A stretch of DNA of 52,635 bases from Girardia tigrina (taxonomy: Eukaryota). The notes under the pieces are model-generated. The model ran no database searches. It was not told the origin of the DNA and saw nothing but the letters and a program-made list of their open reading frames with translations. Positions within the stretch are counted from its first letter, which is position 1, and each line of letters begins with the position of its first letter. The stretch lies in NCBI GenBank assembly GCA_001938485.1, contig MQRK01246015.1, positions 1 to 52,635 of the forward strand. Reading direction: 5' to 3'. Below, one piece after another: positions 8,204-37,711 of the stretch. Position numbers and translations under genes: made by a program.

Positions 8204-10654
8204 ATGTCACGTTATTCGTCCCGTCACAGCAACGACCGTTCATTGTTTTGCGATGAAAATTATGACCACAGAAACGATTATCGTGACGAAAACTACCCTC
8301 ACAGACCCGATTACCCACACGATCGATACGAATCGACCCGCCTATTACATAAACACGATTTTCACTCACGTTCACGTCGCTATGACGAATCAGAATATAC
8401 GAAATACCGACATCGATCGCGCTCTCGCTCACACTCTCGCTCTATCGATCGTCACTGTAAAGACATCAGCAACAGAACGAGTGAATTCGATTTTCATCGC
8501 CACAGATATAATTCATCACACTCGACATATAACGAAACTCGAATAATCAATTTCCGAAATCGACATGAAAATCGCGATTACAACAATCGATTTTACGATC
8601 ATTTGAATGATGTCAATGAAGAATTCGAAATCGATCGATATGAAACGCGTCGAGAACGCCAAAGGGAACTTTTCACACCGGACAGAAGAACAAGACGGAA
8701 ATCGATTTCTCGCGACGATTCACATGATCGATATTATCATAGCAACCGTGACGATTATCGATTTATGAATGGTGGTGAAAATGGGGTGAGGAAAACGTCA
8801 TTGTTAGGCGATGGACCGAAAGAGTGTTTGATTAGAGAACGGAAACGGAATAATGTGCCGTTGAAACGGAAGAAATTCGGGAATAAAATAATTAAGAGGC
8901 AAGTGGTCGATGAAAGAATTGGTCGGGAAATACAGAGTGATAGAAAGAGTGAATGGGCCGAAGAATCGGATGAGGAAACCAAGAACTCCGATTGGAATGG
9001 CAGTGATAAGTCAGTTGATCGGAAGGAATTTGGGGAAGAAAATGAGAGAAATTTTCGGGAAAAAATGATGGATAGAGAGAGCGAATGGCTCGGAAATTCG
9101 GATGAAAATGATAACCAAGTTAAGAATACCGATTCTATTGTTAGTCAGAAGTTAAACGATCAAAGTGTGATAGCAAAAAATTGGGGGATAATAAAAACGG
9201 ACAGAAAGGGCGAATGGCTTGAAGAATCAGACGAAAACGAAGAAGAAATAATAAAAAATTCCGATTACAATAACAGTCATCAGTTCTATCAAAATGGATT
9301 GGTTGATGGAAATGAAAGAAATTCTTCCGAAATAAAAATTGATGGAAAGAGCGAATCGCTTGGAAATTTGGATGAAAATGATAACGAAGTTAAGAAATCC
9401 GATTCCAATATAAATGAGAAGTTAAACGATCAAAGTGTAGTGACAAGAAATTGGGGGAAAATAAAGGCAGACAGAAAGAGTGAATGGCTTGAAGATTCGG
9501 ATGAAAGTGAAGAAGAAATAAAGAAATCCGATTTTAATAATATTCTGAAGGTAAACGATCACAATGTAACTGCCGAAAGGAAATTTCCGGAGGTAAATAT
9601 CGATAGAAAGAGTGAATGGATTCATGAGTCGGATGAAAATGAAATTAAGAAATCCGATTCTAATATAATTCCGAAGATAAATGATCAAAGTGTAATGCCA
9701 AGAAATTGGGGGAAAATAAAGGCAGACAGAAAGAGTGAATGGCTTGAAGATTCGGATGAAAATGAAGATGAAATAAATAAATCCGATATTAATATTAATC
9801 AGAACTTAAGCGATCAAAGTGTAACTTTAATAAAAGTTAATAACGATAAAAAAAGTAAATGGCTTCAGGAATCAAATGAAAATGAAGGAGTAATATTAAA
9901 AAAATCGGTTGCTAGTAACAATCATAAGTTTATATATCAAAATGGATATGTTGATGGTAACAACAGTAATTCTTTCGAAAAGAAGATTGATAGAACGAGC
10001 GAATTGTTTGAGGAATCAGATGAAAGAACGATTGGTAATAGTGGTCATAAATTAGTCGATCAGAATGGATTTGTGGGGGAAAGTGAAAGAAATTTTCGAG
10101 AATTAAAGATTGATAGAAAAAGCGAATGTCTCGAAGAATCAGCGGCAAACGAAAAAGAGATAATGAAATCGGATTGTAATAATAACTATGATAATAATTA
10201 TATTAATCTCCATGAAGATAAGAGTTACGATATTGAATACAATCCATTGAGAATTGATTTAGCTGATAATAGTCGTATAAATTACATGGATAAAACACAT
10301 TCATTAGTGCAAAATGAGCATTTAAATCAAGGTTATTATTTATTTAAGTGCAGCAATGTTATTTCTATGGAACATCCGACCGCCGGTTTTAAAGAATCAT
10401 ATTTAAATGATTTGAATATTAAATCGGAGTTAGATAAACAGATTAGGTCCTTAGCAAACATGTTGACTTCGTCCCCGTCCAACACCCCCAAGCAAGATCA
10501 ATCACCTAAAACCAAAGCAATCGTTAAAATGAAGTGGGCGCTGACGCCTCTTGAACCACCGATACGAAGGCTCATTTCCGAATCCGATGTCGATCTCAAG
10601 ACATGCAGCGAGGCCGACCCCAGACTCAGACACCTTTTGAGATTAACATTTTAA
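8204..10654 (+). CDS. Intronless 816-aa protein: Arg/Ser/Asp/His-rich (RS-like) N-terminus, ~10 central W-acidic repeats, C-terminal DPR motif
   Basis: Uninterrupted 2.45-kb ATG ORF in AT-rich DNA. Contains RHRSRSRSHSRS, repeats of DRKSEWLE(E/D)SDE, and ends CSEADPRLRHLLRLTF. AATAAA downstream at ~10951. Confidence 0.85.
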   Translation: MSRYSSRHSNDRSLFCDENYDHRNDYRDENYPHRPDYPHDRYESTRLLHKHDFHSRSRRYDESEYTKYRHRSRSRSHSRSIDRHCKDISNRTSEFDFHRHRYNSSHSTYNETRIINFRNRHENRDYNNRFYDHLNDVNEEFEIDRYETRRERQRELFTPDRRTRRKSISRDDSHDRYYHSNRDDYRFMNGGENGVRKTSLLGDGPKECLIRERKRNNVPLKRKKFGNKIIKRQVVDERIGREIQSDRKSEWAEESDEETKNSDWNGSDKSVDRKEFGEENERNFREKMMDRESEWLGNSDENDNQVKNTDSIVSQKLNDQSVIAKNWGIIKTDRKGEWLEESDENEEEIIKNSDYNNSHQFYQNGLVDGNERNSSEIKIDGKSESLGNLDENDNEVKKSDSNINEKLNDQSVVTRNWGKIKADRKSEWLEDSDESEEEIKKSDFNNILKVNDHNVTAERKFPEVNIDRKSEWIHESDENEIKKSDSNIIPKINDQSVMPRNWGKIKADRKSEWLEDSDENEDEINKSDININQNLSDQSVTLIKVNNDKKSKWLQESNENEGVILKKSVASNNHKFIYQNGYVDGNNSNSFEKKIDRTSELFEESDERTIGNSGHKLVDQNGFVGESERNFRELKIDRKSECLEESAANEKEIMKSDCNNNYDNNYINLHEDKSYDIEYNPLRIDLADNSRINYMDKTHSLVQNEHLNQGYYLFKCSNVISMEHPTAGFKESYLNDLNIKSELDKQIRSLANMLTSSPSNTPKQDQSPKTKAIVKMKWALTPLEPPIRRLISESDVDLKTCSEADPRLRHLLRLTF
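8935..10170 (+). repeat. Coding tandem repeat array (~120-140 bp units) inside the 816-aa ORF
   Basis: Ten DRKSEW/DRESEW/DRKGEW-like units; NWGKIKADRKSEWLEDSDE occurs twice identically. Confidence 0.9.
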
Positions 10655-12479
10655 ATCGAGATTATTATTTAATGTTTTCAATCGAGAAGAATGATATATG
10701 TGTGTGTGCGTGTGTATATAATTGAAGGTCCCTAGAATTATTGTTGAAACAAGGTCGGCATTTATTGAACATAGAGACCAATGATAATAATACGCCATTG
10801 AAGAACAAGATTATTTGTCATGTTTTCGTAATTTATCGATGTTATTTATCTGTGTTTGCGCTTTAAAAATAGCATTTCATTTGTATAAAATGTGAAACTG
10901 TTTTACATATTTGTACAAATTATTTTATCAATTTTACTGAAATTGAGTCGAATAAATGTTGATAAGTGTCGTCAGTGAATTGTGTTTTGTATTGGATTAA
11001 ATCAACTTGTGAACTAGAATGATAAGGAACAACAGGAACAATACATGGGCTTAACTCGATACATTTTTAATTACAATTGGTTTTCTAAGAAGATATTGTT
11101 ACTTTTTATTTTCCTTTACTAATTACAAAAAACAATTACATATGCAACTGGAAAAGCATTAAATAAACGTTTTCAAGCGGATTATTTTGTTGGACAGAAT
11201 ACAATGGAACTGTTACAATGCAATGATGCTTTGAGAAAATTTAGTTCTCGTTAACATTTTTTCATGCTTTATTACATCTTACTACATAGTAACACTGGTG
11301 ACAATGTGGTAATTAAGTAACTCAATCTGGAAAGTTTACTTTTGATGAGGATAGAACATTTGTAAATCAAACATTTACATATGGGATTGGGAAATCTTTC
11401 AACTCATAAAATTGAATAATGCATTGAGAAAATTTAATTCTCGTTATCATTTTATCACTTTCCACTAATATATACTTTAATATAAATAAATATGCGGCAG
11501 TATTTTTATTGACAACACCGGCCTCAAATGAAAACCCTTCTGTTTTTCTGTTAACAAGTTATTAAAATTATGTTTTTCTATAAGTGATAATATGACTAAC
11601 TTCAAGTGCTGAAATGTATTTTTAATTAATCATTCAGAGAAGAAAGCTGCTTATCACAATACATTATTTTTGATTTTCCTTCTTGAATATATTACTTTAA
11701 AAAAATTAACGAGTGTTTTCATAATTATATTTTCAAAAATATAACTTAAATATATTTATTTTTCTTATATTTATAAAAGATCAGTTAAACTTATGCTAAT
11801 TTTGTAACTTAACAAAATTAATTGTTATTTAAAATGTAGTGAGATTTAGATCTTCAAGATTTATCAACAAAAATAATTCTTAATCGAAAATGCATTTATC
11901 TTTCAGTGCAGTATTATAGCTGTTATGTAATTAAATGCGCATTTTCGTAATAATTATATGTGAATATGGTATAGCGTGTGATATATATAGGCGAGTATTA
12001 TACAAGTTGTTGCTTGTTCTTGTTCATTGTGTTTATGTTACATATATCTTGTTTCTTTTCACATTGAATTTTGTATCTTCAATAATATCTTGGTCAATTC
12101 CAATGATTGATTTATCGTTTGAATGTTTAAAATAATTTGATTATCTATTTGACAGAATTTTATAATAGTGTAAAGCAACTTTGACATCAAATGCAATTGA
12201 TTCATTACCCGACAAACATACCTTGTATCAATTTGTAGAAAGGGTTTTTTGACATTTTTGCGAGGGCGGCGTCTTTTTTGAAGTTTTTAAACGAATTTCA
12301 AATCAAAGTCTCAAATCAGTCGACGAAAAAATCATAAAAATTTTACTCTAAATTTTATAATTCAGAATAACAATGTATTCAAATCACACCAAAAAATTAA
12401 ATATATTAATAAATACTTATACTTCAATATAACCTTTGCTTAGATACTCTTTAATTAAAATTCGTTCGATTCGATTAAA

Positions 12480-13647
12480 ATTCGTGCGATTGGCTCATAT
12501 CAGATGGTCGGCCCACGATCCTTGTCCGACCAACAATCTGCAATATATCAGGCAATACAAGGCAGTGCAATATTTCATGATAATCAACTCTTACAAGTCT
12601 GCGAAGAAGGTATCTTAAAACGCTAGAGGAATCACTAAATTTAAGACGTGTGAAGCTATGATTCTGCCTTTCCGAATGAACTTTGACCTCAAATTCACTA
12701 TCCGACAAACTTACCTTCTATCAATCTGTAGGAAGTATTTTTTAAAATTTTTGTGCGAACGGCGTATTTGCCATCTGGACAAATATATAAACTTGTTTTG
12801 AAATAAAGTTTGAGAATTATATAGAAAGTTTTTGTTTCCAGTATCCAGATTTGTTTCAAGTATCCAGACAACAGCTTCTTAGAAAGTTTATCAGAAGAAT
12901 GACCAATAAGGAACCCTACTTTCTGAAGTTCTGCAAAGCTGTTCTTAAAGCATGTGGCTTCAACAAAACCAAAAACAATATAATAGGGCAATTCACCCGT
13001 CTCATTAGCCTTAATTGTGCCTCCTCCATTTCAAATATCCAGAGTAACTTTGCTGTTCAAGGTATCATCCAGAGAATTGTTCCGAAAGTTATCTCCATCA
13101 TTGAGGAGAATAAGGCTGCACCTCCCACATGATTAGGCCAGCCTATTGTTGTGCCTAATATCCCAGCCATGGCCAACGATATTTCTGATCTTTCTGCTGC
13201 TCTAAGCTGTTTATCGTTCTCCGGTTCTGCTTTTTGACTGCTTTTTGAGCTCCTTTATTTGCCGTCACACTCACATTCCTTGTTTATGTTGATTCCCCCC
13301 TAACATTGTTACCTCTACAAAGAACTTGACCAGCTAAATTTTGCTTTTCTGGTCATATTTACTCTATTAGACTTAAGAAGCCTCGTTCTCCATATCTTGG
13401 CTGCTCTGAAGTTAGCCCTAATAGAGTCTATCATGACAAAATTCAAAAGACTTATATTGTAAACCCTAAGGCTGCTATGGTCCTTATCAGACTACGGGTG
13501 AACGCATCTGCCAAACCCATTCCTGCGGATTTTACAAATTTTGTCAAACGAAATAATTGTCATTTTCAAGTCCTTCCTGACTCTTTTGATTATCCTATTA
13601 AGACAGATGCCGATCCCAATCAGATAAAGTCCCGAAAGGGCAAATGA
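12480..13647 (+). pseudogene. Decayed intronless ORF of unknown origin
   Basis: GC-richer block with protein-like frames (ORF 12851-13132; FCFSGHIYSIRLKKPRSPYLG...IKSRKGK*) followed by AATAAA. Confidence 0.35.
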
Positions 13648-13679
13648 AAAAATTTTTGTTTTGTAATAAATTTTTGGTA

Positions 13680-13801
13680 CCTTAAACTGAAGGGACTCCT
13701 TACCCTCGTCGGCTCTCAACTTCTGTCTTAATTGCAACTGCAGCTGTTCTGAATACAATCGCTCGAGCTCGCGGATTCGAGCTTCCATCACAACGCCCCA
13801 A
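13680..13801 (-). mobile_element. Possible PBS plus gag start of a truncated LTR retroelement
   Basis: TGGGGCGTTG immediately precedes MEARIRELERLYSEQ..., with an AT-rich LTR-like block upstream. Confidence 0.3.
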
Positions 13802-14355
13802 TTTATACTATTTTTGTATTTATTTGCTATTTTCTCTCGTTTTTTGATGTGATTATTATCTTTTATTATCTGTGGGCATTTTATAAGTATTTTAATGAAT
13901 TTTCCTACTATTTTATTTGTTTATTTCATCGTAATCCGTTCATTAATCGTTATTTATTGATTTATTATTTTTATTTCAATTTTGCTATTTCTCTGTCAAT
14001 TCTTAACGGATTTTTACACTTCTTGTTTCGTTTTACTCGTAAAATTATTCTGAAATTTTAAGATAATTTTGCAGATTGTTAACCGTTCATTTTTTGCGCA
14101 ATATTCCGATTTTACCGCCTATTGATTCGTATTTATTTATGTTTCTACCAATATTGACACTTTTCCTTTCATTTTGTACACATTTTGCCACTTCTTGTTA
14201 TCTATTTATTATAATTCTTGCATTTTTGTACGAATTCTCTTCGCTTTTTCTATTTTATGTTCTTTTCGAGTATTTTGTTTTAATTGTGCTTAAATTTTAT
14301 ATGTTCAAGTATTTTTTTAATTCAATATTTTTATTGAATTTTGATTCTATCGTGT

Positions 14356-17300: not shown

Positions 17301-17910
17301 TGCTCTGCAGTTTTTTCCATTGACGATACATCGAATAACTGGAAGCGCCTTTAATCCATCCGAGAAGCCGCTGACGACTCCTCGCTCACGTTTCCCACCC
17401 GACAGAATCTAGCAATGTGTCCCTTCCTTCGACATCTAAAACATATAATTTTTCTCTTGGAAGAACTTTTAGGACGATCCTCTTCCGTCTTTTGAACACC
17501 CTTTTCATCAGCTGCATACGGGTTTTTAACGCTCTGATCCGCGCTAACGCCGCTACGACTACGTCCTTCCAGCTTATTTATTCCCTTCCGATCGTATAAA
17601 CTCACCATTGACGTATGAGTTGTGTTTTTTGCAATACTAATATACGTGCGGGTCACTTCCACTATTTCACTCCATTCTCGGACTCCTCGTTTCTCGATTT
17701 CCAAAGCGATTTCCGTTGGTAATCCGGCTAAAAATGCAGCGATTTCTAGATTGTCGACCGTTTTTACCAATTTCGACACTTCCGCAGCGTACTTGTCAAT
17801 AGTGCTGAAATCTGAATATTTAATCTACTGTAATTTACGATACGCCTCTCGCGGTTTCACTCCAAACGCTGCATTCAATACTCGAAAAACTTCATCAATA
17901 TTCGATTGTT
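14356..17910 (-). mobile_element. LTR retrotransposon A (short-LTR clade), 5'-truncated: gag(CCHC)-PR-RT-RH-IN plus 3' LTR 14356-14499
   Basis: CFRCRRKGHIARFC; ALVDTECS; DLSDAYMQI, MGFGLNTAP, YVDD; WCDAS...HINIAELEA; HH..CQKC integrase; PPT-like TCTGGTTGGGA; TG..CA LTR. Confidence 0.9.
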
Positions 17911-18199
17911 GAAACTGGTAAACAACAGCGGAAACTGGCAAACAACAGCTGCAGGAGCCAATCGCAGTGCATTCGTTGGTGTTACAGACGTCCCAGTTTT
18001 TTCTAGATGACGACGGATCAACTCGAACCTGGTTTGGACTAATAGAGTGTTGTCTAAAAAGTGTGAGGAGTCAACATGTGCATTTTCTACACCTCACAGC
18101 CGCATTACCAGTCGATCAATTACAGGTGATAAACAAAGAACTACATGTGATCACTGCACATGACCGATTATGCGATCAGTTGTGCCACCACTTTCTCGT

Positions 18200-18425
18200 A
18201 CTGTCTGACCGACGCGTATAGGGCCAATTCCCCGAGTGAGTCTTGCGGCGCCTGACCGCTCTTCCACTTCCATACTGCTGTCCGCGAACGGCAGTCGAAC
18301 TCGGCCGAAAACACAGCATCATCGATTCACTTTCGTGCTGGTCGCTTCGCTGTGCTCAATGCCGCCCGGTGATCGATCCGTCCAAACGTTTGGGCACCGC
18401 TTCAGCTAGGCACCAACACGATCCC
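18200..18425 (-). mobile_element. Fragment of the PR-RT junction of a clade-B-like retroelement
   Basis: FSAEFDCRSRTAVWKWKSG resembles FPVKFDGESWTVAWKWK in element B. Confidence 0.55.
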
Positions 18426-21400: not shown

Positions 21401-23056
21401 CGCCATCGAACTTGACTGGAAAATCTACGTCTACCAACTGCGCTGATGCTGGTAGTCCCGTTACACAGTTAATTACACTGGTAGTCCCGATGCTCAGTGC
21501 AACCGAATCTCTGGACCTTGACCCCTCCTGGCACCCACACGCCTCCAAGCTTCTCTATGATGTCCATTCCGAGAAGCATCTCAACCCTCGAAGCTATGAC
21601 CTCTGGCACCACCAGTATGTTGCAATCGATTCGTCTTCCACCGCACTCGATCGTTGTTGCTACTCAAAATCTCACGCTGACAATCGAGTCAGATCAAGAG
21701 CCGTAATGATCTGCACTGTTTCCTTCACCAGAATGAGTTCAGATTTTGGGACCAATGTCTCTGCGACAGTTGTGGTAGAAAATCCTGTGTCGACGATGGC
21801 CCTCACCGCCCTACCACCCACGGTTGCCGGGATGATCATTATTCGCGCGTCTCAGAGTCCAGGTCCTCCACCCGCTCAGCAGTATGAGCCTGATGATCAT
21901 TTCCCGCCGGTTTGGACGTGACCATCAGCAGACGATAAACAAAGAACTGCCTGTGATCACTGCACATGACCGATTATACGATCAATTGTCCGATCATTAC
22001 TCGGTTACCGCTCGGTACGATCATTATCCGGCCGCAATTGTAGCATTGCAGACTCCTTGGACCGCCTTGGTCGGTTACTGCTCTTAGCTGCCCTCTTCCA
22101 GTCGCACATTCGCGTGCAACGTGCCCGCTCCATCCGCAACTATTTACAACATCAATGAGTTTTACAACATTTATTAATATCACAAGTGCATTCACAATTT
22201 GACATTTTTCTTGATCGATATATTTCTGAGTTCATTCTAATTATTTTCAATAAATGAAAATCTGTTAATAAAAATTATTAAGAATCTAATTGGTTAAAAT
22301 TAAATCTAAACATTTTTTAAAAAAGAACATATTAAATTAATATATAAAATTTTAAATTACATTAAAAAATAAATAATACATTCACAAATTATTTTAAAGC
22401 TTTTTACTTTAAAATTAAATTAAATTATTTTTAATTAGTAGGAATCAAAGTAAATACCAATTATCGATCTGTGTAGGAGAGACACATTCCGAATCAACAT
22501 AAAACATGCACAATATCAACACACGATTCAAAACATTCCTCACAGCAACAAAAGAATTTAAATACGCCGGCCGGTGCCAAAACCCGGGCTGATTGTCCCC
22601 CCGGCCGCGCCACGGCTGCAATGACTTCAGTGACTCCTCGTGCCACCGTGACGTGTATTCGGGCCAGTCAGACCAGTCAATACAGGTCTAGCGCTTTTCT
22701 CAGCGCCTCGGTTTAGACACTTTTCATGGCCGCCTCGGGTATTCCGTTTATAAACGCTTGAACTATGAATGCTTCCCCACTGCCAGCTCTCCCGAAAATG
22801 ACGGCGGCCATCCGTTTAAGCTCCGCCATAAAATAATCCACGCTCTCGCCATTTTCCAGACTACGCTTCAGTGAGTGCTGCAGTGCTCTTTTCGAAATCT
22901 TTTCTCATTGGTTCGTGTGATATTAAATGAATTATTTAATAAAATATTGAATTTAAATAAAAAGTGCTTGTTTAAATATTCAAAACATGATAGTTTTCAA
23001 ATATATGTTTATTACTATTGAATCTTAATTTTTAATTCGATTATATATATATAACA

Positions 23057-23071
23057 TGGCGTCACGAGCAG
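23057..23071 (+). promoter_or_regulatory. Primer-binding site of Gypsy E, complementary to a tRNA-Ser-like 3' end
   Basis: TGGCGTCACGAGCAG directly follows the 5' LTR; metazoan tRNA-Ser(CGA) ends ..CGTGACGCCA. Confidence 0.75.
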
Positions 23072-25327
23072 AAAAAAACAGCTTCATGGAGGAATTTCTG
23101 TTTAAAGAAAAGGAAGGTAAACTTTTTGTTTTTAAAAAAACATTCAGCGAACCAAACGAAAATTAGAGAACACCTGAAAATGTATTGGAATTCATCAAAT
23201 TATTTACGTTTGGTGAAAACGAAAAAAAAGGATGAATTGCAACTTTTCCAAAAATATTTTGATGATTTAATCAATAAAGAAATCAAAAGCGATCCATCAT
23301 ACGATTGTGGATCCGAAAATCTTGATGATTACATTCAACGAATGTTTAAATTATTAGAAAAGAAGGAGTCAAAAATAAGCAATATCAAACCAATATTTCA
23401 GATAACTCAGAATAAAAATGAAAATATCATAGAATACGCCAAAAGAATCCGCATATGAAGTTTGGGAATAAAAGAAATCAAGGAAGATATAATGATCGAA
23501 GCTTTCTTGGAAGGTTTGGCATCTAAGAAAATCGCAAAAATTGTCCGGTTATTTAAACCAAAAACATTAAAAGAAGTGATTGACCTTATAAAGGACGAAC
23601 AAGAACCAGAAAATATTTTCGAGAATGAGCAAAATTTTTATCACATTAAAAATGATCAGGAAAGTTTGAAACAGCTGAAACTTGAAAACGAAAAACTTCA
23701 GAATGAGATACGACAATTGAAATCGATAATATCGAGAATAAGAGAAAAACTTAAAACAGACAAGAAAATATGATCCAGTAAATATGACTAGAAATTTTCC
23801 TAAATATTCTATGGATAAAAGAGAGTGTTTCACCTATAAAAGGATATGACATATTGCTAAATTTTGCAGGGAACACAAATGTTACGGTTGTGGAGCGACA
23901 AACCACGTAATTCGAGATTGTGGAATAAAACGATTAAGATATTTTCAAGAAGATGAGCAAGAAATTTTAAGTAACAGTTTTAAGTAAGAAGTTTTAAAAA
24001 GAGATCAGAGAAGGAGAATAGTGAACTGCAGGATAATCAAATTAATATGATAAACAAGTCAGAATGGAACAAAGAAAAGTCAAAGGCCATTTTTATGAAC
24101 AAACCAACGTTGGAAGAAGCATATAGTAATTATATTCAATGTCAAGGAGCGCGGCCAAAAATAATTTGTATAAATACGAACCGACTTTAATATCAGAATC
24201 AAGACCCGATAAAGCGAGAAATAAACCGATCGTTCAGTGTAATACGACGAATATGCCAGTCAAAGTCATGTTCGACACAGGTGCTGACTTAAATGTCATC
24301 AGTCAAGAGTTGGTGGAGAAGATTTGTGAACGAAATCCAGACGTCAAAATTTATGATTCAAGAACCAAGANNNNNNNNNNAAATGGTACTACGGAAGAAT
24401 GCATAGGAAAGGTTCAACTTAATGTGGCAATCGGACCACATATTACAGCCCATGTTTTTGACATTATGCCTAAAATATTTCCTCACATTTTCATCGGGTT
24501 AAGAAGTATGAAAAAATACGAAATAAAAGTAAATGCTGGAGAGGATTGTATTGAAATACAGAATGTTAAGATTCCATTTATCTCAAAAACATTAACGGCG
24601 GAGTCTTTAAACTAGGATGGTTCGCTTTGGAGGGTCGTAATGCGGGGTTCAATCGGATAGAGACTCAAAATATCGATTTATATAAAATTATTGTATCAGA
24701 TAATGCTACTACGAGTGGTTATGAAGATTATTTTATTAAAGGAATGATAGTGGACAGTTACAACGAAAGAATGAGTGATGAAAACCGAGAATTTATTTTT
24801 ACAGGAGAAAAAGAGAAACTCAGCGAAAAAGGCCTGATGGCAATGGATAGCCTTATCAAGTGTTATGATGGATATGTTTGAATCAGATTAACTAATATTG
24901 AAGGAGGAAGAAGACAGATACGTACTGGGATGACCTTGGGTTATGTAGAGGTATATCATGAAGATAAACAAACGACAGAAAAAAAGATCAATATACAGCC
25001 TAGCGAAGGAGAATCAGAAAAAAAGAGAAAATCGAAATTGAAGAAACGCTGAAGAGCATTGAAGAATCCATTAAAGCACCGAATGAACAGGCAAGAAATA
25101 GTCTAATGGAAATTATACGGGCAAATAAAGATATTTTTAGTACGTATAGACTGGATATCGGGAAAAGTGATCTAATTGAACACACCATTGAGACCGAAAA
25201 TGAAAAGCCAATTAATTTTCAACCTAGAAGGATACCCCAGGGACTTGAAAAGAAAGTACAAGTAATGATCGAAGAAATGGAAAAGAAAGGAATTATCAGA
25301 CCTAGCACGTCCACTTGAAACTTTCCA

Positions 25328-26710
25328 GTGGTAGTGGCTAAGAAAAAGAATGGAGATATTCGACTATGCGTAGATTACAGAGCTCTGAATGCGAAAACAA
25401 ACAGACCGATATTTCCAATACCATCCTCGGAAGAGATTTTCGATAGTATTGGGGGATCCAAATATTTTTCTACTCTCGATTTATCAAGTGGGTATCACCA
25501 AGTACCAGTGGCAGCAGAAGATGTACATAAGACTGTATTCAGTACCAGACACGGTCAATACGAGTTTCTCAGAATGCCATTTGGGTTATGTGGTGCCCCC
25601 GCAACTTTTCAGAGATTAATGAACTTAATTTTAAGAAAAGAAAATTGGATCAACTGTGTTATATATCTTGATGATATTTTGATTTTTGGAAAGACGATAG
25701 AAGAACATAATCAAAGATTAGAAATGGTGTTATCGAGAATAAAACAAGCAGGACTAAAATTAGCTCCAACAAAATGCCGGTTTATGCAAACAGAGATAAA
25801 ATATTTAGGTCATGTAATCAACGAAGATGGCGTGAAGACAGATCCTGGTAAAATCAAGGGCATCAAAAAATGGAAGTTACCAGACTGCAAAAAAGAATTA
25901 CAGACATTCTTAGGATTTTGCAACTATTATCGCAGGTTTATCAAGAATTATGCTGAATTGTTTAGTCCTTTAAGTTCGATGTTAAAAAAAGATTCAAAAT
26001 TTGTGTGGACAGACGAATCGAGAAGTATGTTTTACAGACTCAAGAAACATCTCACACAACCTCCTGTGTTAGCTTTACCTATAAAAGACGGTAAATATAT
26101 TTTAAATACGGACGCATTCCATGATGCAATTGGTGCAGTGTTATCACAAATCCAAAATGGAGAAGAACGAGTTATTTATTATGCCACAAAAACACTTACT
26201 AAGAACCAAAGACAATATTGTATTACTCGAAAGGAACTGCTAGCCATCCATACGTTTGTTTTGAAATTTAAACATTACTTGATAGGATCACATTTTCTTG
26301 TCAGGACGGATCATCAGGCACTAAAATGGCTTTTAAACTGGAATAGCCTAAACATATCACAGTACTGTATTTGGAAATCAGAACTGGAAATATTTGATAT
26401 GGAGATAGAATTCAGAAAAGGAAAGGACCACAATAATGCCGATGGTCCTTCAAGACCAGCACCATGTGAACAGTGTGCCCTACAACATGAAGATCCAAAA
26501 AAGAAAAGAAACGTAAAAAAATATCACCCAGTGTACATAGAAAATGGGAAAACTCACAGCGAGTATTCGGAAAAGATTGTCAATGAGATTCAAAAACAAA
26601 ATAACGAGAGTCCAAACGAGTGGGAGCAGGAAACAGATGAAGAGTTACGGAAGTTACTGAATCCAATAACTTACAAAGACGAGAAAAAAATATCAATCTG
26701 GTGGATATGA
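25328..26710 (+). CDS. pol: Gypsy RT-RNase H segment (part of disrupted pol)
   Basis: RLCVDYRALN, FSTLDLSSGYHQ, MPFGL, YLDD, TDA..AIGAVL, TDHQAL. Confidence 0.95.
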   Translation: MVVAKKKNGDIRLCVDYRALNAKTNRPIFPIPSSEEIFDSIGGSKYFSTLDLSSGYHQVPVAAEDVHKTVFSTRHGQYEFLRMPFGLCGAPATFQRLMNLILRKENWINCVIYLDDILIFGKTIEEHNQRLEMVLSRIKQAGLKLAPTKCRFMQTEIKYLGHVINEDGVKTDPGKIKGIKKWKLPDCKKELQTFLGFCNYYRRFIKNYAELFSPLSSMLKKDSKFVWTDESRSMFYRLKKHLTQPPVLALPIKDGKYILNTDAFHDAIGAVLSQIQNGEERVIYYATKTLTKNQRQYCITRKELLAIHTFVLKFKHYLIGSHFLVRTDHQALKWLLNWNSLNISQYCIWKSELEIFDMEIEFRKGKDHNNADGPSRPAPCEQCALQHEDPKKKRNVKKYHPVYIENGKTHSEYSEKIVNEIQKQNNESPNEWEQETDEELRKLLNPITYKDEKKISIWWI

Positions 26711-26762
26711 AATCAGAATTCGTGGGGATATTATATATTTATTTAAGGATGGAATCTATAGA

Positions 26763-28069
26763 GTGATAGTGCCAAAACACAAAAGACAGGAAATAATTTG
26801 GAACTACCACCGACAATTGGGACATCCAGGAATGAAAAAAACAGCAGATGTTATTGCAAGAAATCATTACTGGGTGAACATGATTGAAGACATAAAAGAA
26901 ACATTAAGTAAATGCATACCATGCATTAGAAACAAAAATATCAATGGAAGAATTAAAGCGCCATTACAGAGCTTGATTACCAAAAAACCGTTTGAAGTAA
27001 TCGGAATAGATATCACAGTACCATTTACAAGAACGAGGAAGGGATACCGATACATCCTTGGTGTGATTGACTATTTCTCGAAATATGTATGCTTAATACC
27101 GATGAAGACAATAACAGCAGAAAAAGTGATAAAAAATTTATGGATTCATTGGATATCAAAATATGGGATTCCAGAACGAATACACTCGGACAGGGGTACT
27201 AATTTTACATCAAATTTATTTATTGAACATTGTCGAACACTGGGAATCAAGAAGACGTTTACTTCCCCATATTATCCACAGGGAAATGGATTAATAGAAA
27301 GGTTGTTTCAAACGGTAAAACCGATGATCAGCGCAGTGATGGAGGAAAGAAAAATTCAAGACTAGAATGAAACACTACCATTCATAGTGAACTTGGAATA
27401 CGAACAACAAAGCAAAAAACCACAAAGTATTCTCCATATGAGGTGTTGTTTGGACGCAAACCAAGAATCGACTTCATTCACTCTGAGCCTTTCTCGGACA
27501 CGGAATATCACAACACCAATGAATATGTGAATGAAATGAGAAGTAAGATAAAAATAGTTCACGAATTTGTTACTAGAAATTTGAGGGACCAAAATGTAAA
27601 AGATAAATTAAGGTATGACAAGCATAGAAGGAACGCAAAACTACAAGTCGGGCAGAAAGTTATGGTCAAAAATCAAGGAGCACAAGGATTTGAAAATAAA
27701 TACATTGGGCCATTCGTTATCAGGAGAATTATCGACGACTGGACATTCATTTTATATCATGAAGAAGCGAATAAAGAAATACAACATAACTACAACCAGA
27801 TCAAAGAAGTGAGGGAAACCGAAGATCAGAGTGGGAAACAAAGACTCAGACCAGTATACGAACTTGGAGAACAAAGGGCAAGGAAACAGCTCAGGTCAAA
27901 GAGAGAAGATACCCGATCAGAAATACGCGGAATCCAAGACCGATATACAGATGATTTCGAAGAGGGGAATGTGATATTAAATGAATTATTTAATAAAATA
28001 TTGAATTTAAATAAAAAGTGCTTGTTTAAATATTCAAAAAATGGTAGTTTTCAAATATATGTTTATTGA
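26763..28069 (+). pseudogene. Gypsy integrase (two ORF pieces split by a stop and frameshift)
   Basis: HRQLGH...CIPC, VIDYFSK, HSDRGTNF, YYPQGNGLIER, YIGPF. Confidence 0.9.
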
Positions 28070-28999
28070 ATCTTAATTTTTAATTCGATTATATATATAA
28101 CAGTTCGCTAAACCCTCGAAAAACGACTGCTGCCTCTCCTGATAGAGCCAGTGGCAGCATTGCTTGTTTATCTTCGTTAAGCATTGCGTTGCATTCGCGG
28201 AATCGTTCGATCCACACGGTGACGTTCTCGCGTGCGTCGAATGCAGGAATCAATTTTAAAGTCTTCATGTGCCGCGATAGCTTGTAGAGACAAAATCAGA
28301 AAACAAGGCTTGATAATAAATAAGATCTTCCGCTCGACTCAAATTTCCCGCCTAATATATACGACTAATTTAAACAACTACGATTAATTGTTGATCTATT
28401 TATTATCATTTACTCTCCCATTTTGTTTCGAAAAAATCCTTTATTAATTTTTTTAGATATTTTAAATAAATTAATAAATTTAATAAATTAATAAATTATT
28501 TTATTTTAATTCCAGAAAATTATTTTGAATTTTTGAATATTATATAAATTAATATCGGAATCATTTTTGTGTGTTATCGATGAGAACTTGTAAAAATAGT
28601 ATATAATATTTATAAAAATGATTAAATTTTTATTGGAGGCCAAACATTAACTAATTCAAAAATGTATTATAAAACATAAATATTACTACACAACAATTAA
28701 AATGAAAAGTTGTGAGCAATACCTCGTAAATAATATATTACGTTTTGAGCATCATAGTTTCTCATGGTGACATCCTATTATTCGTTTTTTTAAGAAATTC
28801 ATTAAAATATTTTGTCTAAAATTTTTTTAAAAAATTTTGTCTTTATTCATTTAAATTGTCTTCCAATCATAAATGGCTGACTAATTTTCGCCACTACCAA
28901 TAATCCTCGATGTATTGTAGCCCGGACAAAAAAATCCCGTATGAATTGTCAATCGGATCATAAATCCCCGAGGAATTGTGTCCCGACAATTTTCCACGA

Positions 29000-29190
29000 C
29001 CAATTGACGTGTTCCAATGACTAATGCCCTCGCGACGATCAATGTCGAACATCCTGTGTCGACCATTGCACTCACGGTCCTCCCACACACGTTCACCGGA
29101 ATAAATGTTAATCGTGCGTCACCGCAGCCAGGCTCCCCAGCCGCACAATAGTGGGTACTTGCTATTGCTCGGTTTTGCAGTGAGGGCATC
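29000..29190 (-). mobile_element. Retroelement protease fragment (short-LTR clade-like)
   Basis: VNVCGRTVSAMVDTGCSTLIV. Confidence 0.6.
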
Positions 29191-30846
29191 TCCTTGTAAT
29201 CAGAAAATTGGAAGGAGAACGCTTCTCCAACAACAAGTAGAAGTCAAAAGGGATCACCAAGATACCAATCGATATGGTTAAGATATAGATTCTCTCTGAC
29301 CAACATCAGCAGATTGATTAGAAGAGGAGAGCCGTGCGGAGGAACAGGGTCATCAAGTCAAAATCCCAATCAACACTGGAAATTTATCTCGACCGATCGA
29401 ACATGAACTGGAACTCCAACCAAATAAAAACGAGGATGTACTAGTCGGTGATTATTCGAAGGCCGGTTATTAAATTTATTATGTAATAATCACTTTTTAT
29501 TAAAATTATTTAACAATGATTTACTTAATTTATTTAACTCATTCATTAAAAACTGCATATTTAATTATTTTTTGAAAAAATAACATTTATTTAAACAAAC
29601 TGCAAACTTCTTTTTTAACAGATTTACCCTAATTTACTGCGTATAACCCGCGGGTAAAACGGTGGAAAAAGACGACTGTTCTTAAAATTTATTGGTGCGG
29701 GTTTTATACTAAAGTTTACAAAATGTACTAAATGACCAAAATTTAATTAAAAAAAATTTGACTGGGAATACTTTTCAAAAATATTTTTTTCTAAATAAAT
29801 ATGAAAAAAACTTTTAATGAAGCTTTTGCAGAGTTTTTTTAAGAAACGCTAATAAAGTTTTATAAATGAAAAAAAATATTAACAAATTTTATTTAACCAT
29901 CGATATAAACAAAAATATGGAACTAGATAAAATTAATTAAAACAAAATCTATAAAAATATTAAAAATGAAAATCCACCGAAATATGATCTTGGAGAATGT
30001 TTGATTGACTAATATAATAAATTAAAAAAGCTTTTCAAATACACCCAATCGGATAATAGCACATCATCCAAAAAAAACTTAGATTTTATGAACCTGAAAA
30101 TAAATTTTTTAATAATTCAAAAAAGATCCTGTATAGAATATTTTAAATGTTCGATGTCTTGTATTAAAATGTTGTATGTTGATTTAAAATTGTCTCTCGT
30201 ACCCAGATGGCTGATTAATATTTTAAATCTTATTATCGGAAACTATATAATGTTTAAATTTATTTCTAGCTTAAAATAATTGTAAAATTTTAAAAAAGTT
30301 TTAATAATTTTATTTACATTTTTTAAATAAATAGAATAATATATTTAAAAAAATGAATAATCATTTTAACTTTTAAGCAAAAGAATTTAGAAAAAATATT
30401 TTATCAATTTATATAATTCTCCATTTGCTCAAATAATAAGATTAAAATCATTAATTAATTAGATGGATGCAATCGTAAAATAGTTTTGACCAAGATTGTC
30501 CTGAGGACAATCAAACGTGTTGTATTATATTAAAAATAATAAAAGTCATATTATTGTTCTTAATATATTTAATTTCCGATAATATAAAAGCATTAATTCG
30601 GAAAATTATATTCCTGAAAAAAAATCAAAAAAATTGTTAAAAAACAATGCAGAAATTTTTTTAATTGGTTAAATAAGGGGGATCGAGAAAATGGTTATAA
30701 GTTGTGGTGGACCAAAATAAAGTTTCAGTTTTATCGTATGCTGCGTAAACTTTGAGTATCAGTTAAAATTTTCAAGCAATCGATTTAAATCACCCTACAA
30801 CAACACCTAAACAATTAAGTAGCTGGATTTCAGTCACTCAATAAAA

Positions 30847-31450
30847 TGTAAAGAATAGTGAAAATGCTGACTCAAATAGACTTTTACTTACATGAACCAA
30901 AGTCATCTTTATCAAAATCAAACATTAAAGTTCCTACTTGTCTGTTTAATTTATTTGTAATTCACCCAATTTACACCCGAAAACTAAAAAAACTGATTAA
31001 AATGCTTTATCACACTTCCTCTTGCCTTCAAAGTACATACAAATACACCACCTATGTACGGGAAAGTTCCCCCTTTTCTGATATCGAACACCACATAGAC
31101 AAAGTCTCTTGACCGAGCCGACGCGCAATCGCTCGACGTGGCCTCTCCTCCTGCATGTATTCATTTCGGTGCTCAAGGTTATCTGAATCGTTTGTTTTCA
31201 GAATGGGTATTGACGCTACATACATCTGCTTTGATAAACATATAAGGTATGATATGTGGTAAGGGATTCCTTCAATTTCAAATTGATTGGAATGAGACAC
31301 ATCACTCACTATGGCGAGCCTCTAATGCTCTGTGCATGTTGTCGGTTTTCAAAACAGGACCAATTTGCGTACCGATACTTTATCTCAACACTCATTGTAA
31401 GGTTAGGTGCATTTCTAATTCCTCTTCTATCCGGCCAATTCAATCTACGT
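30847..31450 (-). mobile_element. 3' end (integrase C-terminus, PPT, LTR 30847-31014) of another short-LTR clade member (D)
   Basis: KPTTCTEH*RLAIV..EIEGIPYHI parallels KP..CT..W of elements A and B. PPT GAAGGCAAGAGGAAG followed by TGTG, as in element B. Confidence 0.55.
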
Positions 31451-32132
31451 ATGTTCAAAATAATTTATTACTTTCTTAATAAATGCTTATTTTCTACAAA
31501 GAATTCACTGTCAATTAAGATTTCAAACGTCTTAATCACATCATTTTCTGGATCAAATGATGCCAATGGATGTAAGTTTAGGACAAAATTATAATTTTCT
31601 GTATAATATAATATATATTTTTATATAGAATGTAAAGTTTATGTTTTTTACTGTCACTGCGCTGAATAGACCCAAAAGATTTAGTGCGGATCCTCACCAT
31701 CTTCTAAAAATCCACCCACGTTACCTCCTCAAATATCCGTAATATGATCGACTGCTGCCACGAGACGAGTTTTTGAAATACAATTTAAGGGGAAACATAA
31801 TTTTCAAAGCATTTCACAAAATTTATTAAAACAAAATACAAAAAAAATTTCCAAAGTAGACAGTGATGATTAATCCACGTAACGACTCATTTAAAATCAA
31901 TCTGTTTAAAACATTTCGAAATAAGTAAAATTGATAAATAATCAAAACCAAAAAAACAATATCTTAATACCATAACCTTAAAACACTAGTATATCTATAA
32001 CCCGTCATGTATGACGGGTATAATTATATAGAATAAATTTTCGTGGTATAAATATAAACGTAAAATCTACAATTGTAAGTAGATAATATGAGCGTTCTTC
32101 ACAGAATCAGTCACATATCAAGACAAATTTTA

Positions 32133-32788
32133 TCTTATAAAAGCCCAAGTCACTCACTGCCTGCCTGCCTGCTTCACTAACGCTGACGTAATAATAGTAT
32201 TATTTGTTGAAAAATAAATGTGAAAAAATATCAATTTATTATGANNNNNNNNNNNNNNNNNNNNNNNNNNNNNNNNNNNNNNNNNNNNNNNNNNTATCAA
32301 TTTATTATGAAAAATTCTGTATTTAATGTGAAAAATATCAATTTATTATGAAAAATTCTGTATTTAATGTGGAAAAATATCAATTTATTATGAAAAAATT
32401 CTGTATTTAATGTTGAAAAATATCAATTTATTATGAAAAATTTTGTATTTAATGTGGAAAAATATCAATTTATTATGAAAAATTCTGTATTTAATATGAA
32501 AAACATCAATTTATTATGAAAAATTCTGTATTTNNNNNNNNNNNNNNNNNNNNNNNNNNNNNNNNNNNNNNNNNNNNNNNNNNNNNATATGAAAAACATC
32601 AATTTATTATGAAAAATTCTGTATTTAATGTGGAAAAAATATCAATTTATTATGAAAAATTCTGTTATTATTTCAAAAATTTACCTTACAGCATTAGTGA
32701 GGCAGGCAGTGAGTGACTTGGGCTTTTATAATATAAAAAAATTGAACCCCCGCCAAGAGAGGGCCGCGAAGCGGGCCGAGCGCGCTAG
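32133..32788 (+). mobile_element. Non-autonomous Helitron with internal inverted repeats and minisatellite
   Basis: A|TC start; GC hairpin GGCCGCGAAGCGGGCC shortly before CTAG|T; inverted repeats 32135-32185 / 32690-32731. Confidence 0.7.
32215..32665. repeat. ~41-bp AT-rich minisatellite (AAAAATATCAATTTATTATGAAAAATTCTGTATTTAATGTG), gapped
   Basis: Multiple tandem copies read directly. Confidence 0.95.
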
Positions 32789-32864
32789 TATATCTATAAT
32801 TATCATTTATGAGATAAATTATTTTGTTATAAAAACTCGTCGGATAACATTTATTTTATATATA

Positions 32865-32994
32865 TATATATATATTTGTCTTGATCTGTGACTGACTGAT
32901 TCTGTGAAGAACGCTCATATTATTTACTTACAATGGTAAGTAGATAATATGAGCGTTCTTCACAGAATCAGTCACAGATCAAGATAAATATATA
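32865..32994. repeat. ~125-bp near-perfect palindrome; a third arm copy lies at 32075-32128
   Basis: Arms ..CTTGATCTGTGAC..GAAGAACGCTCATATTATTTACTTAC and GTAAGTAGATAATATGAGCGTTCTTC..GATCAAG around a 4-nt loop. Confidence 0.9.
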
Positions 32995-33522
32995 TCTATA
33001 TTTTCAAATAAAGATAAACGCAATTTCAATTGTGAACAACATATTTTTTATTTATATAGGAGAGACACAATTCCAAATCAACACACAATACATAAATTGC
33101 ACGAAGTTTCACTCTTTGTCAATGAGTACAAAGATAAAAATATTCTATTTTCAATTCACAACAATTAGTAGTGCACAAACAGTTGGTATGTTTGTAAAAC
33201 CATAAAGATCAAAATTTTCGTTTATTACGATTTGAGATCGAGTGCCGTGGGATCATTAAGATCAGAAACTGTTAATTGTATTCGGCTTGATATAATTTTC
33301 AACATTGTCAATAAAGCAGCAAATGAATATACTATTAGAATGTTTGTATCGAAATTCATTTGACGATGAATATGGCTTTACTTTTTCCATTTTGAATGTT
33401 AATCAATATAAAATATTTTTTAGCTTTTCTGATTCGAAATTGAATATTTAAGAATGAATTTTTAAGAAGTCTTTTAAAAGCTCATAAAATATCTATTATG
33501 TACTTGGAAACAGAGCCACAGT

Positions 33523-34626
33523 TTAGATAATCAAATCTCTTCTTCTTGGATCCAATTCATGGCACTTTCCCACATTAAAATAATTTTTGGTGAGCTGAAT
33601 AGGAACGAGATCAAGTCTGATGAGACGCCATTCAACGTTTGGCAAAGTAATGAGAGATGTTTCTTTCTGTAAGTCAGAATAACTGAAATTAAAATTTTCG
33701 TAATATTGTTGAGCCATGGAGTTCTCAAAAATTTGCATATTTCGCGATAAAATATCGGTTTCTGGGTTCGTAACGCTTTTTTTGTGTGAAAACTGTTGAG
33801 TATTTATTTGATCGATATTCTGAAATTTTTTTTGTATTTGGTTCACTACCGTTTGAGGTATACAAAACCCTTTCTTTGATTCTTCTGGTACTTGTTTTTC
33901 AAAGGAAATATTTACATCGTGTTGGTAATCAACAACCTGATATTTTTTAGCTAAAAAATCGTATGGAGAGGGTTTTGGAACGATTGGAACTTCATGTTCA
34001 GGTTTATTTAAACATAAATTACTTTTATTACCAAAAGGAATACTTTGGGGAATTTCAGCTTCCGAAATGAAATTTATCTTAACCGGTGAATTAATTTTTA
34101 GGGGAGAGTGACTTTTCTGTGGTGAAATATTATCTTTTAGATCATTATCATACTCAGTAATTATAGGTTTTATACATTCTCTTTCAATTTTACTTTTTCT
34201 TTTAAATTGATCTACCTTAATTTCTTTGTCCCATTTCGAAGAAGTAAATTGTTTAAGTTCCACTTCAAAGTCTCTCTTGTTTTCAGTTTCACTGTTCGAA
34301 TCTGACTTCACGCAATCACTTTTCGATGCTACAATGGGTTCTGTTTTATACCACGGATAGTGTACTTGTGGTTTGTCGGGGTCTTCCTCTGTATAATTTT
34401 CTTCATCACTACTACATTCTTTCTTCATTGGTTTCCTTTCTCGATTTTTGTCAGATCTTTCTTTTCTCGGTCGAGATCTGCTTCGGTCTCTTTCTTTTAT
34501 TTTAGAATCGTCAAATTCGTGTCTTAATCTTTGACGATCGTTTTCATAATTTTTATACGAACACATTCTTCGTTCAAAATTTCTATTTCGTCTGTTTCTT
34601 TTCGAATGAAATTCTTTCTCAAACAT
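33523..34626 (-). CDS. Intronless 367-aa protein: basic RS-like N-terminus, C-terminal DPR motif; probable paralog of the 816-aa ORF
   Basis: Intact ATG ORF; RDRSRSRPRKERS; C-terminus EWRLIRLDLVPIQL...CHELDPRRRDLII. Confidence 0.8.
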   Translation of the reverse strand: MFEKEFHSKRNRRNRNFERRMCSYKNYENDRQRLRHEFDDSKIKERDRSRSRPRKERSDKNRERKPMKKECSSDEENYTEEDPDKPQVHYPWYKTEPIVASKSDCVKSDSNSETENKRDFEVELKQFTSSKWDKEIKVDQFKRKSKIERECIKPIITEYDNDLKDNISPQKSHSPLKINSPVKINFISEAEIPQSIPFGNKSNLCLNKPEHEVPIVPKPSPYDFLAKKYQVVDYQHDVNISFEKQVPEESKKGFCIPQTVVNQIQKKFQNIDQINTQQFSHKKSVTNPETDILSRNMQIFENSMAQQYYENFNFSYSDLQKETSLITLPNVEWRLIRLDLVPIQLTKNYFNVGKCHELDPRRRDLII

Positions 34627-37655: not shown

Positions 37656-37674
37656 TTTAGTTAATGATTTAATT

Positions 37675-37711
<37 letters not shown>

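Follow-up and report, generated by a model that had tools for sequence, protein, structure and literature searches.

WDR82-binding adaptors and the genes of the Girardia locus

ZC3H4/Suppressor of sable (Su(s)), a subunit of Restrictor, terminates non-coding transcription by Pol II and combines an RS/RG-rich N-terminal region, tandem CCCH fingers, an acidic motif that binds ARS2 and a C-terminal DPR segment. Motifs with a Trp-led hydrophobic stretch and a DPR are described for PNUTS, Symplekin, SET1A and PCF11 in two reports (PMC13710762; PMC12187157), the former, a structural paper of 2026, presenting the sharing of WDR82 among Restrictor, SET1 and PNUTS-PP1 as an open question. According to a further source, a finger-less fragment of human ZC3H4 (residues 804-1303), with the WDR82-binding region present, accumulates in the cytoplasm and is dominant negative if overexpressed (PMC10760643). 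Judged by title and the start of the abstract, none of the papers listed on ZC3H4 paralogues and WDR82 concerns natural finger-less paralogues; likewise, no paper was found joining planarians and ZC3H4.

The stretch of DNA analysed here, henceforth the window, comprises 52,635 nucleotides from Girardia tigrina (contig MQRK01246015.1, assembly GCA_001938485.1) and contains two convergent genes, ORF1 and ORF2, ~23 kb apart (Table 1), which belong with three further genes, A, B and C, to the family described below. Like ZC3H4, ZC3H6 and Suppressor of sable, the family proteins are disordered and low in complexity, begin with a part that is basic or, to a varying degree, Arg/Ser-rich, and bear a DPR segment of the WDR82 type at the C-terminus. 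They differ from ZC3H4 in several respects: they lack CCCH fingers; they are encoded by a single uninterrupted frame rather than several exons; they have one DPR at the extreme end, whereas the last exon of the host ZC3H4-type gene Z1 has two; they possess extra repeated motifs not seen in the ZC3H4 exons compared; and at least five such genes exist beside three intact ZC3H4-type genes. The Trp-led stretch and the DPR are also common to the PNUTS, Symplekin, SET1A and PCF11 motifs, but no enzyme or folded domain is detectable in the family with Pfam. The human fragment, in contrast, is an engineered construct, whereas the family genes are natural, apparently old and selected, and have N-terminal regions of their own. 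Our best reading is that they form an offshoot of ZC3H4, devoid of fingers and confined to this lineage, whose members would sit on WDR82 either as decoys or as alternative adaptors.

Table 1. Features of ORF1 and ORF2 with their positions in the window
Feature	Positions	Strand	Remarks
ORF1	8204..10654	+	Uninterrupted frame of 816 aa, low-complexity; neither Pfam match nor CCCH finger
ORF1 RS/SR dipeptide cluster (aa 55-80)	8366..8443	+	Within Arg/His/Asp-rich N-terminal region
ORF1 acidic repeats	8939..10162	+	Ten repeats, in frame and 40-48 aa long, with the core DRKSEWLEDSDENE; dN/dS of the cores 0.20
ORF1 predicted helix before tail	10415..10468	+	Aligns with genes A, B and C
ORF1 tail module W778...D805-P-R	10535..10624	+	Homologous to genes A, B and C; putative WDR82 docking, by extension from the family
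AATAAA	10951..10956	+	15 nt before the end (10971) of a contig from a presumed-RNA run
ORF2	33523..34626	-	Uninterrupted frame of 367 aa; neither Pfam match nor CCCH finger
ORF2 short RS patch (aa 48-58)	34453..34485	-	
ORF2 KYQVVDYQH	33919..33945	-	Weak match to K[FY]DVFDYxHQ, a motif repeated in A, B and C
ORF2 tail module W333...D359-P-R	33544..33630	-	Predicted WDR82 docking via W-x-L-x-x-L strand and DPR

A family of finger-less genes with a common tail

As the original prediction held, both frames are intact and both match the pattern W-x-L-x-x-L-[DE]...C-x-E-x-DPR-x-R-x-L (at residue 778 of ORF1 and 333 of ORF2). Compared directly, the two proteins are not similar beyond chance (BLASTP E=0.18, 12/38 identical); the claimed C-terminal similarity is nevertheless significant because of third members. 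The ORF1 tail has 16 matches in the genome, including six contigs that represent the three distinct uninterrupted genes A, B and C, and the tail of gene A retrieves ORF1 from the whole genome (E=8.2e-4). Among 1147 six-frame peptides of the window, a profile of A, B and C placed ORF2 first (E=1.9e-5) and ORF1 second (E=7e-5), the next scoring 0.62; neither score was matched in 2000 shuffles, likewise when the DPR was held fixed, and the independent score in this test is that of ORF2, since ORF1 was the query that had found A, B and C. Searches with the ORF2 tail alone or with the middle region of ORF2 gave no relative. The DPR tripeptide is invariant in all five members, which stop 5-12 residues past it. 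At least five uninterrupted, zinc-finger-less genes with a common tail form one family.

The predicted absence of CCCH fingers was borne out in the window and in the examined flanks of A, B and C, where a profile built from the CCCH regions of the three host genes had no match under E=0.58, nor did a CCCH regular expression match; a Pfam scan of ORF1, ORF2, A and B matched no family. The possibility that the two ORFs are the last exons of CCCH genes was rejected, as 8 kb and 18 kb upstream are free of a CCCH exon.

N-terminal to the tail the members vary. RS/SR dipeptides in the first 200 residues number 14 in ORF1, eight in gene B, five (as a single short patch) in ORF2 and two in gene A, the sequence of gene C being without its start; thus, the RS-rich start ascribed to both window genes is strong in ORF1 but finds no support as a family-wide trait. 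Basic clusters are found in ORF1, ORF2 and gene A. A DYxH motif is repeated in A, B and C and does not occur in any of five ZC3H4 exons compared; its weak counterpart in ORF2 is equalled by 6 of 2000 shuffles, and a literature search on the motif returned nothing related. The ten acidic repeats of ORF1, which the original prediction had passed over, lie in a region that is single-copy in the genome. RVxF-like strings are present in both window genes and are too common to carry weight. Two further claims were not confirmed: the upstream segment Y..N...S(E/D)L.K...SL, attributed to both proteins, is matched by ORF2 only and is out of register in five-sequence alignments, and the tail of ORF1 is not a folded domain, AlphaFold2 yielding a non-globular model of its last 80 residues (pTM 0.25, mean pLDDT 67).

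Outside the Girardia tigrina genome no homologue was found in the cluster, protein and word-indexed searches: the five-tail profile matched none of 1.84 billion cluster representatives, two family queries of a protein atlas gave no usable match, and a word-indexed search with the five-row alignment, covering proteins of 423-2000 aa and weak as evidence, recovered none among 7995 candidates. Two weak matches of the five-tail profile among PDB sequences, to stomatin, were rejected. A loose six-codon pattern search produced an uninformative 1477 matches.

Relationship of the tail to the ZC3H4-type genes of the host

Three host genes with CCCH fingers, Z1 (C177544), Z2 (C121565+C213209) and Z3 (C219796), exceed the cut-off of the Pfam family PF22623 'KIAA1064-like CCCH' and were compared with the tail. 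In all three, a W...DPR[LI]xxHP segment follows further downstream on that strand; a Pfam scan of the three last exons matched no family. A search with PF14608 was overwhelmed by fingers of retroelements and of the Nab2 type.

The last exon of Z1 carries the motif WKLILLEVP...DPR, near-identical to the family tail (Z1 WKLILLEVPIKIP...HKYTDPR versus gene A WKLILLHLPERIP...HPSDPR). The five-tail profile scores this exon at 17.5 bits, or 23.9 bits with the DPR fixed, values reached by none of 2000 shuffles in either case, and a profile of ORF1 and ORF2 alone scores it at 9.4 bits (0/1000 shuffles); Z2 and Z3 are not recognised by the family profile. In the reverse direction, against a profile of the Z1, Z2 and Z3 modules, ORF1 scores 0.0 bits, a value equalled in 155/2000 shuffles, and ORF2 reaches 6.0 bits (equalled in 2/2000 shuffles, or in 41/2000 when the DPR is fixed); because of these low scores, the window genes are tied to ZC3H4 mostly via A, B and C. 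The Z1 module as a single genome-wide query retrieved only Z1 itself and Z2 (E=6.8) and not the family. At the level of sequence, the link to ZC3H4 reaches significance when tested specifically and not when searched for blindly. A tree of the 44-column module with eight rows has no supported branch.

Alternatively, the tail might be a WDR82 motif pair taken from PCF11, SET1 or PNUTS, or one formed de novo, with its likeness to Z1 reflecting convergence on the binding sites, as would be compatible with the absence of any match to Z1 outside the tail, the absence of DYxH from the ZC3H4 exons compared, and the lack of genome-wide significance of the Z1 query. However, in Z2 and Z3 the W...DPR layout is made up of quite different residues; hence, WKLILL-x-x-P is not imposed by the binding site, yet Z1 shares it nearly letter-for-letter with A and B along with a similar W-to-D spacing (29 in Z1, 26-27 in the family). 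We regard convergence as quite improbable, and the family tail (~30 residues) as likely descended from the WDR82-binding segment of Z1. Set against the known motifs, the family is without the proline of the WxxPxxL/I consensus of PNUTS (ORF1 has a P one place later), which host Z2 fits; and whereas human ZC3H4 and SET1A have an LxxP motif after the DPR, the Trp stretch of the family stands 26-27 residues before it. The predicted lineage-restricted, ZC3H4-related family is retained on the strength of A, B and C, the Z1 motif and the missing fingers, with the reservation that ORF1 is connected mainly via its relatives.

Z1 also has W-acidic repeats, against which the ORF1 repeat profile is not significant (126/1000 shuffles as high); a pattern devised after viewing both repeat sets, with seven matches in ORF1 and seven in Z1, is a lead only.

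Predicted docking on WDR82

The proposal that the tails bind WDR82 is supported by modelling for ORF2. Its tail passed a complex prediction with an ipSAE of 0.80, as against 0.28 for the best of three controls, the model combining a stand-in WDR82 from another animal with a disordered 50-residue ORF2 peptide, a class for which the tool is uncalibrated. The mark used is reached by 51/78 solved versus 2/108 mismatched pairs and, in eukaryotes, by 71/105 versus 2/126. Model runs have at least 68% of contacts in common, with partner pLDDT of at least 53. The modelled interface involves partner residues 13-24 and 41-45 and F184 and F224 of WDR82, such that W-x-L-x-x-L would follow one edge of the WD40 propeller, with the DPR at the surface holding both phenylalanines. 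The latter align with F187 and F237 of S. pombe, identified as DPR-pocket residues in a crystal structure (PMC13710762), and both are kept in the two WDR82 genes of the host. In the model, then, the ORF2 tail docks on WDR82 and makes a contact to the two pocket phenylalanines comparable to that of the PNUTS, Symplekin, SET1A and PCF11 motifs. Solved complexes of WDR82 with such motifs exist, and the pass of the model may stem from likeness to them.

Selection, transcription and transposon context

By substitution patterns, the family appears to be old and diverged, with signs of purifying selection. The cores of the ORF1 repeats have a lower dN/dS (Table 1) than the same cores in shifted frames (0.60 and 1.23), genes B and C give 0.54 over 392 codons, and synonymous differences between the window tails and those of A, B, C and Z1 amount to 0.62-0.92 with the ORF1 and ORF2 frames still open. 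Seven contigs from two of three presumed-RNA runs cover parts of ORF1, all within 8179-10971, the silent flank examined being ~200 nt; they offer a weak hint that ORF1 is transcribed. The run search with ORF2 had no RNA run among the matches listed.

That these are non-functional or silent copies simply retaining an open frame would agree with the thin RNA evidence, the failure to find homologues outside the host genome and a B versus C ratio that is just 0.54. It is nonetheless highly improbable: ORF1 maintains 816 codons in DNA of 33% GC, where 1000 shuffles of positions 8000-11000 gave stop-free frames of 194 codons at most; all nine spacings of its repeats are in frame; near-saturated synonymous sites coexist with a conserved motif; and the presumed-RNA contigs are confined to ORF1 and end 15 nt past AATAAA.

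The window is TE-dense. The statement that it has no intact non-TE ORFs besides ORF1 and ORF2 largely holds: of 21 other ORFs scanned, 10 match transposon Pfam families, but 11 match none, being in or beside TE remnants or not assigned. This setting, the decayed pieces of the ORF1-type 3' end scattered over six distinct loci and the lowering of RNA from repetitive elements by Su(s) and Wdr82, as reported (PMC4691828), might suggest that the genes are cargo or helpers of mobile elements that block Restrictor-type silencing of element transcripts. A check for copies inside a larger TE was negative, however: no LTR-like repeat pair or inverted repeat among the top 20 direct families by size and the top 25 inverted pairs by length encloses either gene, and no element recurs in the window and the flanking DNA of A, B and C, the sole shared piece being a repeat of 228 nt located far from ORF1 and ORF2. 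Neither ORF1 nor ORF2 lies within a recognisable transposon. As the repeat region of ORF1 is moreover single-copy in the genome search and the members are old and diverged, we deem it very unlikely that the genes are cargo or helpers of mobile elements. The originally suggested part in transposon control, or in its antagonism, is conjectural.

Functional implications

On balance, we lean towards ORF1 and ORF2 being members of a finger-less family, with a tail likely from Z1 and a predicted WDR82 dock, that serve as alternative adaptors replacing ZC3H4. Under this model, the tail would fill both the WDR82 edge and the DPR surface, taking the place of ZC3H4; with both sites filled, ZC3H4 and SET1 would be kept off that WDR82 molecule, and PNUTS possibly off its groove too. 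The Arg/Ser-rich start and the conserved repeats (candidates are the acidic W repeats of ORF1 and DYxH in A, B, C and weakly ORF2) could then tether WDR82 to other RNAs or partners, such that a different set of nascent transcripts would be terminated early and the shutdown of unwanted transcripts would be redirected or dampened.

Another role, which we hold to be unlikely, is that of pure decoys titrating WDR82 from Restrictor, SET1 and PNUTS and thereby relieving early termination, with the N-terminal parts providing only nuclear entry, stability or condensates. It would explain why the members keep the WDR82 module only, ending so soon after the DPR, and why the ORF2 model occupies two separate WDR82 surfaces; yet the conserved repeated motifs beyond the tail and the purifying selection suggest further partners. 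The pattern [ED][ED]G[EQ][ILV], which we take to be the ARS2-type acidic motif, is found in none of the five members, as expected of decoys, but is missing from the tested Z1 exon as well. The human C-terminal fragment provides a precedent in raising ZC3H4-suppressed transcripts, but it may trap WDR82 in the cytoplasm (PMC10760643), whereas ORF1, ORF2 and gene A have their basic clusters.

It is possible, if doubtful, that the tail of one ZC3H4 copy gave rise to natural finger-less competitors by which Restrictor is switched off or redirected in particular cells. If so, they would represent a regulatory layer on early termination previously seen only as an engineered dominant-negative fragment, and a natural test of whether animals tune the termination of non-coding and repeat transcripts via competition for WDR82. 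The family offers five natural variants of the two-part WDR82 motif, and two unexplained conserved motifs in the form of DYxH and the W-acidic repeats.

Two diverged window genes belong to one family

The two window genes, ORF1 and ORF2, are convergent and about 23 kb apart, with mostly retroelement remains in between. In 1000 shuffles of 8000-11000 the longest stop-free frame was 194 codons; the 816-aa frame of ORF1 is not a product of chance. Neither protein has a Pfam match. The W...C...DPR pattern of the original prediction is present at the end of both. As to its RS-rich starts, ORF1 has an Arg/Ser-rich N-terminal start and ORF2 a single short RS patch; ORF1 further carries ten acidic repeats spaced at 40-48 codons. 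Direct comparison by BLASTP gives E=0.18, so that their kinship is unproven from the two sequences alone.

When the last 100 aa of ORF1 were compared with the host genome (1.43 Gb, 255,254 contigs), 16 of 17 scored candidates matched. One is ORF1 itself and nine are short relics; the other six are contigs whose long open frames finish with the same tail (the C-terminal W-x-L-x-x-L...C...DPR stretch). The long-frame contigs collapse to three genes: A (434 aa, identical protein on three contigs), B (957 aa counted from the first Met; one extra repeat on a second contig, a third partial) and C (start truncated by the contig end). Against 1147 six-frame window peptides, an A+B+C profile ranks ORF2 first (E=1.9e-5) and ORF1 second (E=7e-5; unlike the ORF2 score, not independent of the search, as A, B and C were found via ORF1), with the next-best peptide at 0.62. 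No shuffle in 2000 matched either score, also with DPR held fixed, and the shared C-terminal similarity is thus significant. All five tails keep W, L, L, P, C and DPR unchanged. The ORF2 tail as sole query retrieves no relative; hence five genes is a lower bound. Searches beyond the host genome, which have little power on short eukaryotic motifs, returned no homologue.

A second motif, K[FY]DVFDYxHQ, is common to A, B and C in up to three copies each; ORF2 has a weak version (6/2000 shuffles as high) and none was found in ORF1. Gene B also carries a 57-aa repeat whose copy number varies in frame between two contigs. Neither motif nor repeat has a match in Pfam, the protein atlas or the literature.

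Features of the window and contigs carrying decayed ORF1-type ends
Feature	Location	Strand	Description
ORF1	8204-10654	+	uninterrupted frame, 816 aa
LTR-type element	22916-28067	+	between ORF1 and ORF2; 98-nt direct repeats 98% identical; protease, RT-RNase H and integrase frames all broken
Tandem array	32190-32800		directly downstream of ORF2; gapped 21/42-nt units, bordered by short repeated GC-richer blocks
ORF2	33523-34626	-	uninterrupted frame, 367 aa
Inverted repeats	36999-38902		2.4 kb upstream of ORF2; long, imperfect, separated by ~1.1-1.7 kb; arrangement resembling a non-autonomous DNA transposon
Relics	C224188, C212773, C204039, C69116, C215992
Relics, near-identical	C81772, C104786, C124018, C141762

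Selection, expression and genomic setting

By the Nei-Gojobori method the ORF1 repeat cores show dN/dS of 0.20, versus 0.60 and 1.23 in shifted frames (computed over non-independent repeat pairs, with a core selected by its residues); B versus C gives 0.54 over 392 codons. These values are signs of purifying selection; dead copies are highly improbable in our estimate. Synonymous differences between the window tails and those of A, B, C and the host gene Z1 are 0.62-0.92. In two of three small runs, guessed to be RNA, seven contigs overlap ORF1, all within 8179-10971; the last stops 15 nt past AATAAA and one carries a 28-letter loose end resembling a cDNA adapter. The silent flank compared was short, so that this is a hint of transcription.

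As for the possible link to transposons first suggested, neither ORF1 nor ORF2 is inside any of the repeat pairs listed for the window, family members have no flanks in common, and the ORF1 repeat region is single-copy in the genome search. That the genes are helpers of mobile elements is very improbable in our estimate.

Relationship to ZC3H4-type genes

Pfam PF22623 (KIAA1064-like CCCH) scores above cut-off at 3 of 33 scored loci in the host genome; KIAA1064 is ZC3H4 according to PMC4691828. Each locus has a W...DPR[LI]xxHP exon downstream on the same strand, which from its position we infer to belong to the CCCH gene. Our comparison covered the host's ZC3H4-type genes Z1-Z3. The Z1 tail, WKLILLEVPIKIP...HKYTDPR, was compared with that of gene A, WKLILLHLPERIP...HPSDPR; the counterpart stretch in B is WKLILLDVPLR. 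Z1 scores 17.5 bits against the family profile (0/2000 shuffles as high, likewise 0/2000 with DPR fixed). The profile does not recognise Z2 or Z3, and the Z1 module as a blind genome query did not retrieve the family; a Z1-Z3 profile scores A, B and C well, ORF2 at 6.0 and ORF1 at 0.0 bits, and the module tree gave no resolution of branching order. Derivation of the tail from a source other than Z1 is quite improbable in our estimate.

CCCH fingers are absent from the window and from the examined flanks of A, B and C. The family genes are therefore not terminal exons of neighbouring finger genes, a reading that we rejected. With the Z1 match, this supports the proposed zinc-finger-less, ZC3H4-related character. 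Judged from sequence, the family most likely descends from the Z1 lineage and would have lost the fingers since; as the module is confined to one exon, retrocopy and exon capture both fit. The literature searched, largely outside subscription journals, described no natural ZC3H4 offshoots lacking the fingers.

Z1 itself has, ahead of the fingers, a very large exon (L109 2211-4928, C177544) whose repeats, of the [KR]WGS type and of the form W-x-x-[YF]-D-S-D-x-E, contain 32 Trp. A tandem CCCH gene resembling ZC3H14/Nab2 is present in many diverged long-frame copies (L076, L083-L085, L088-L092, L097-L099, L102) and may be a second RNA-surveillance factor to have expanded.

Predicted docking on WDR82

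Consensus forms of the WDR82-binding motif, in PMC12187157 and the preprint of PMC13710762, are LxxP and WxxPxxL/I. The host has two WDR82 genes, both retaining the two pocket phenylalanines. The second is more diverged and split over two contigs, and broken copies are also present (L125, L133, L134; L128, L136-L138); Schmidtea likewise has two copies, per PMC3549883. Because both host genes carry introns, a nemertean WDR82 (52-91% identity to five exons of the host gene) served as stand-in. With it, the last 50 aa of ORF2 give an ipSAE of 0.80 versus 0.28 for the best of three controls, the mark for this score being reached in 51/78 solved and 2/108 mismatched pairs; at least 68% of contacts agree between runs and partner pLDDT is at least 53. 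The predicted interface takes in the W-x-L-x-x-L stretch (peptide residues 13-24), LDPRR (41-45) and, on the WDR82 side, F184 and F224, equivalents of the DPR-pocket residues. The modelling thus supports the proposed WDR82 binding for the ORF2 tail, as a prediction on a stand-in partner; the tool is not calibrated for peptides, and complexes of similar make-up have been solved. The ORF1 tail modelled alone is not globular (pTM 0.25), so that the tail is a motif pair and not the C-terminal domain first claimed.

The tail would thus dock WDR82 at two surfaces, and a protein of this kind might displace ZC3H4 and SET1. In function the family would correspond to the portion of Restrictor that binds WDR82; without CCCH fingers it falls outside ZC3H4 proper. 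A pure decoy occupying WDR82 has a precedent in the human finger-less C-terminal ZC3H4 fragment, described as dominant negative in PMC10760643; the conserved motifs outside the tail point instead to an adaptor, and we regard the decoy as unlikely. Given those motifs, and Turnage 2000, whose title assigns the RNA binding of Su(s) to arginine-rich regions, we favour, at somewhat better than even chances, an alternative adaptor on WDR82.

Decayed relics of ORF1-type ends

The relics, at six distinct loci (L025-L033), match window 10581-10917. In each, an ORF1-type acidic repeat end is fused directly to the last 25 codons and the 3' UTR, without the Trp half of the tail; the junctions apparently arose by deletion at short shared sequence. 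Decayed pieces recognised by eye, which we take to be of 14-3-3, histone H2B and CDK-like genes, lie 0.2-2.4 kb from three relic loci.
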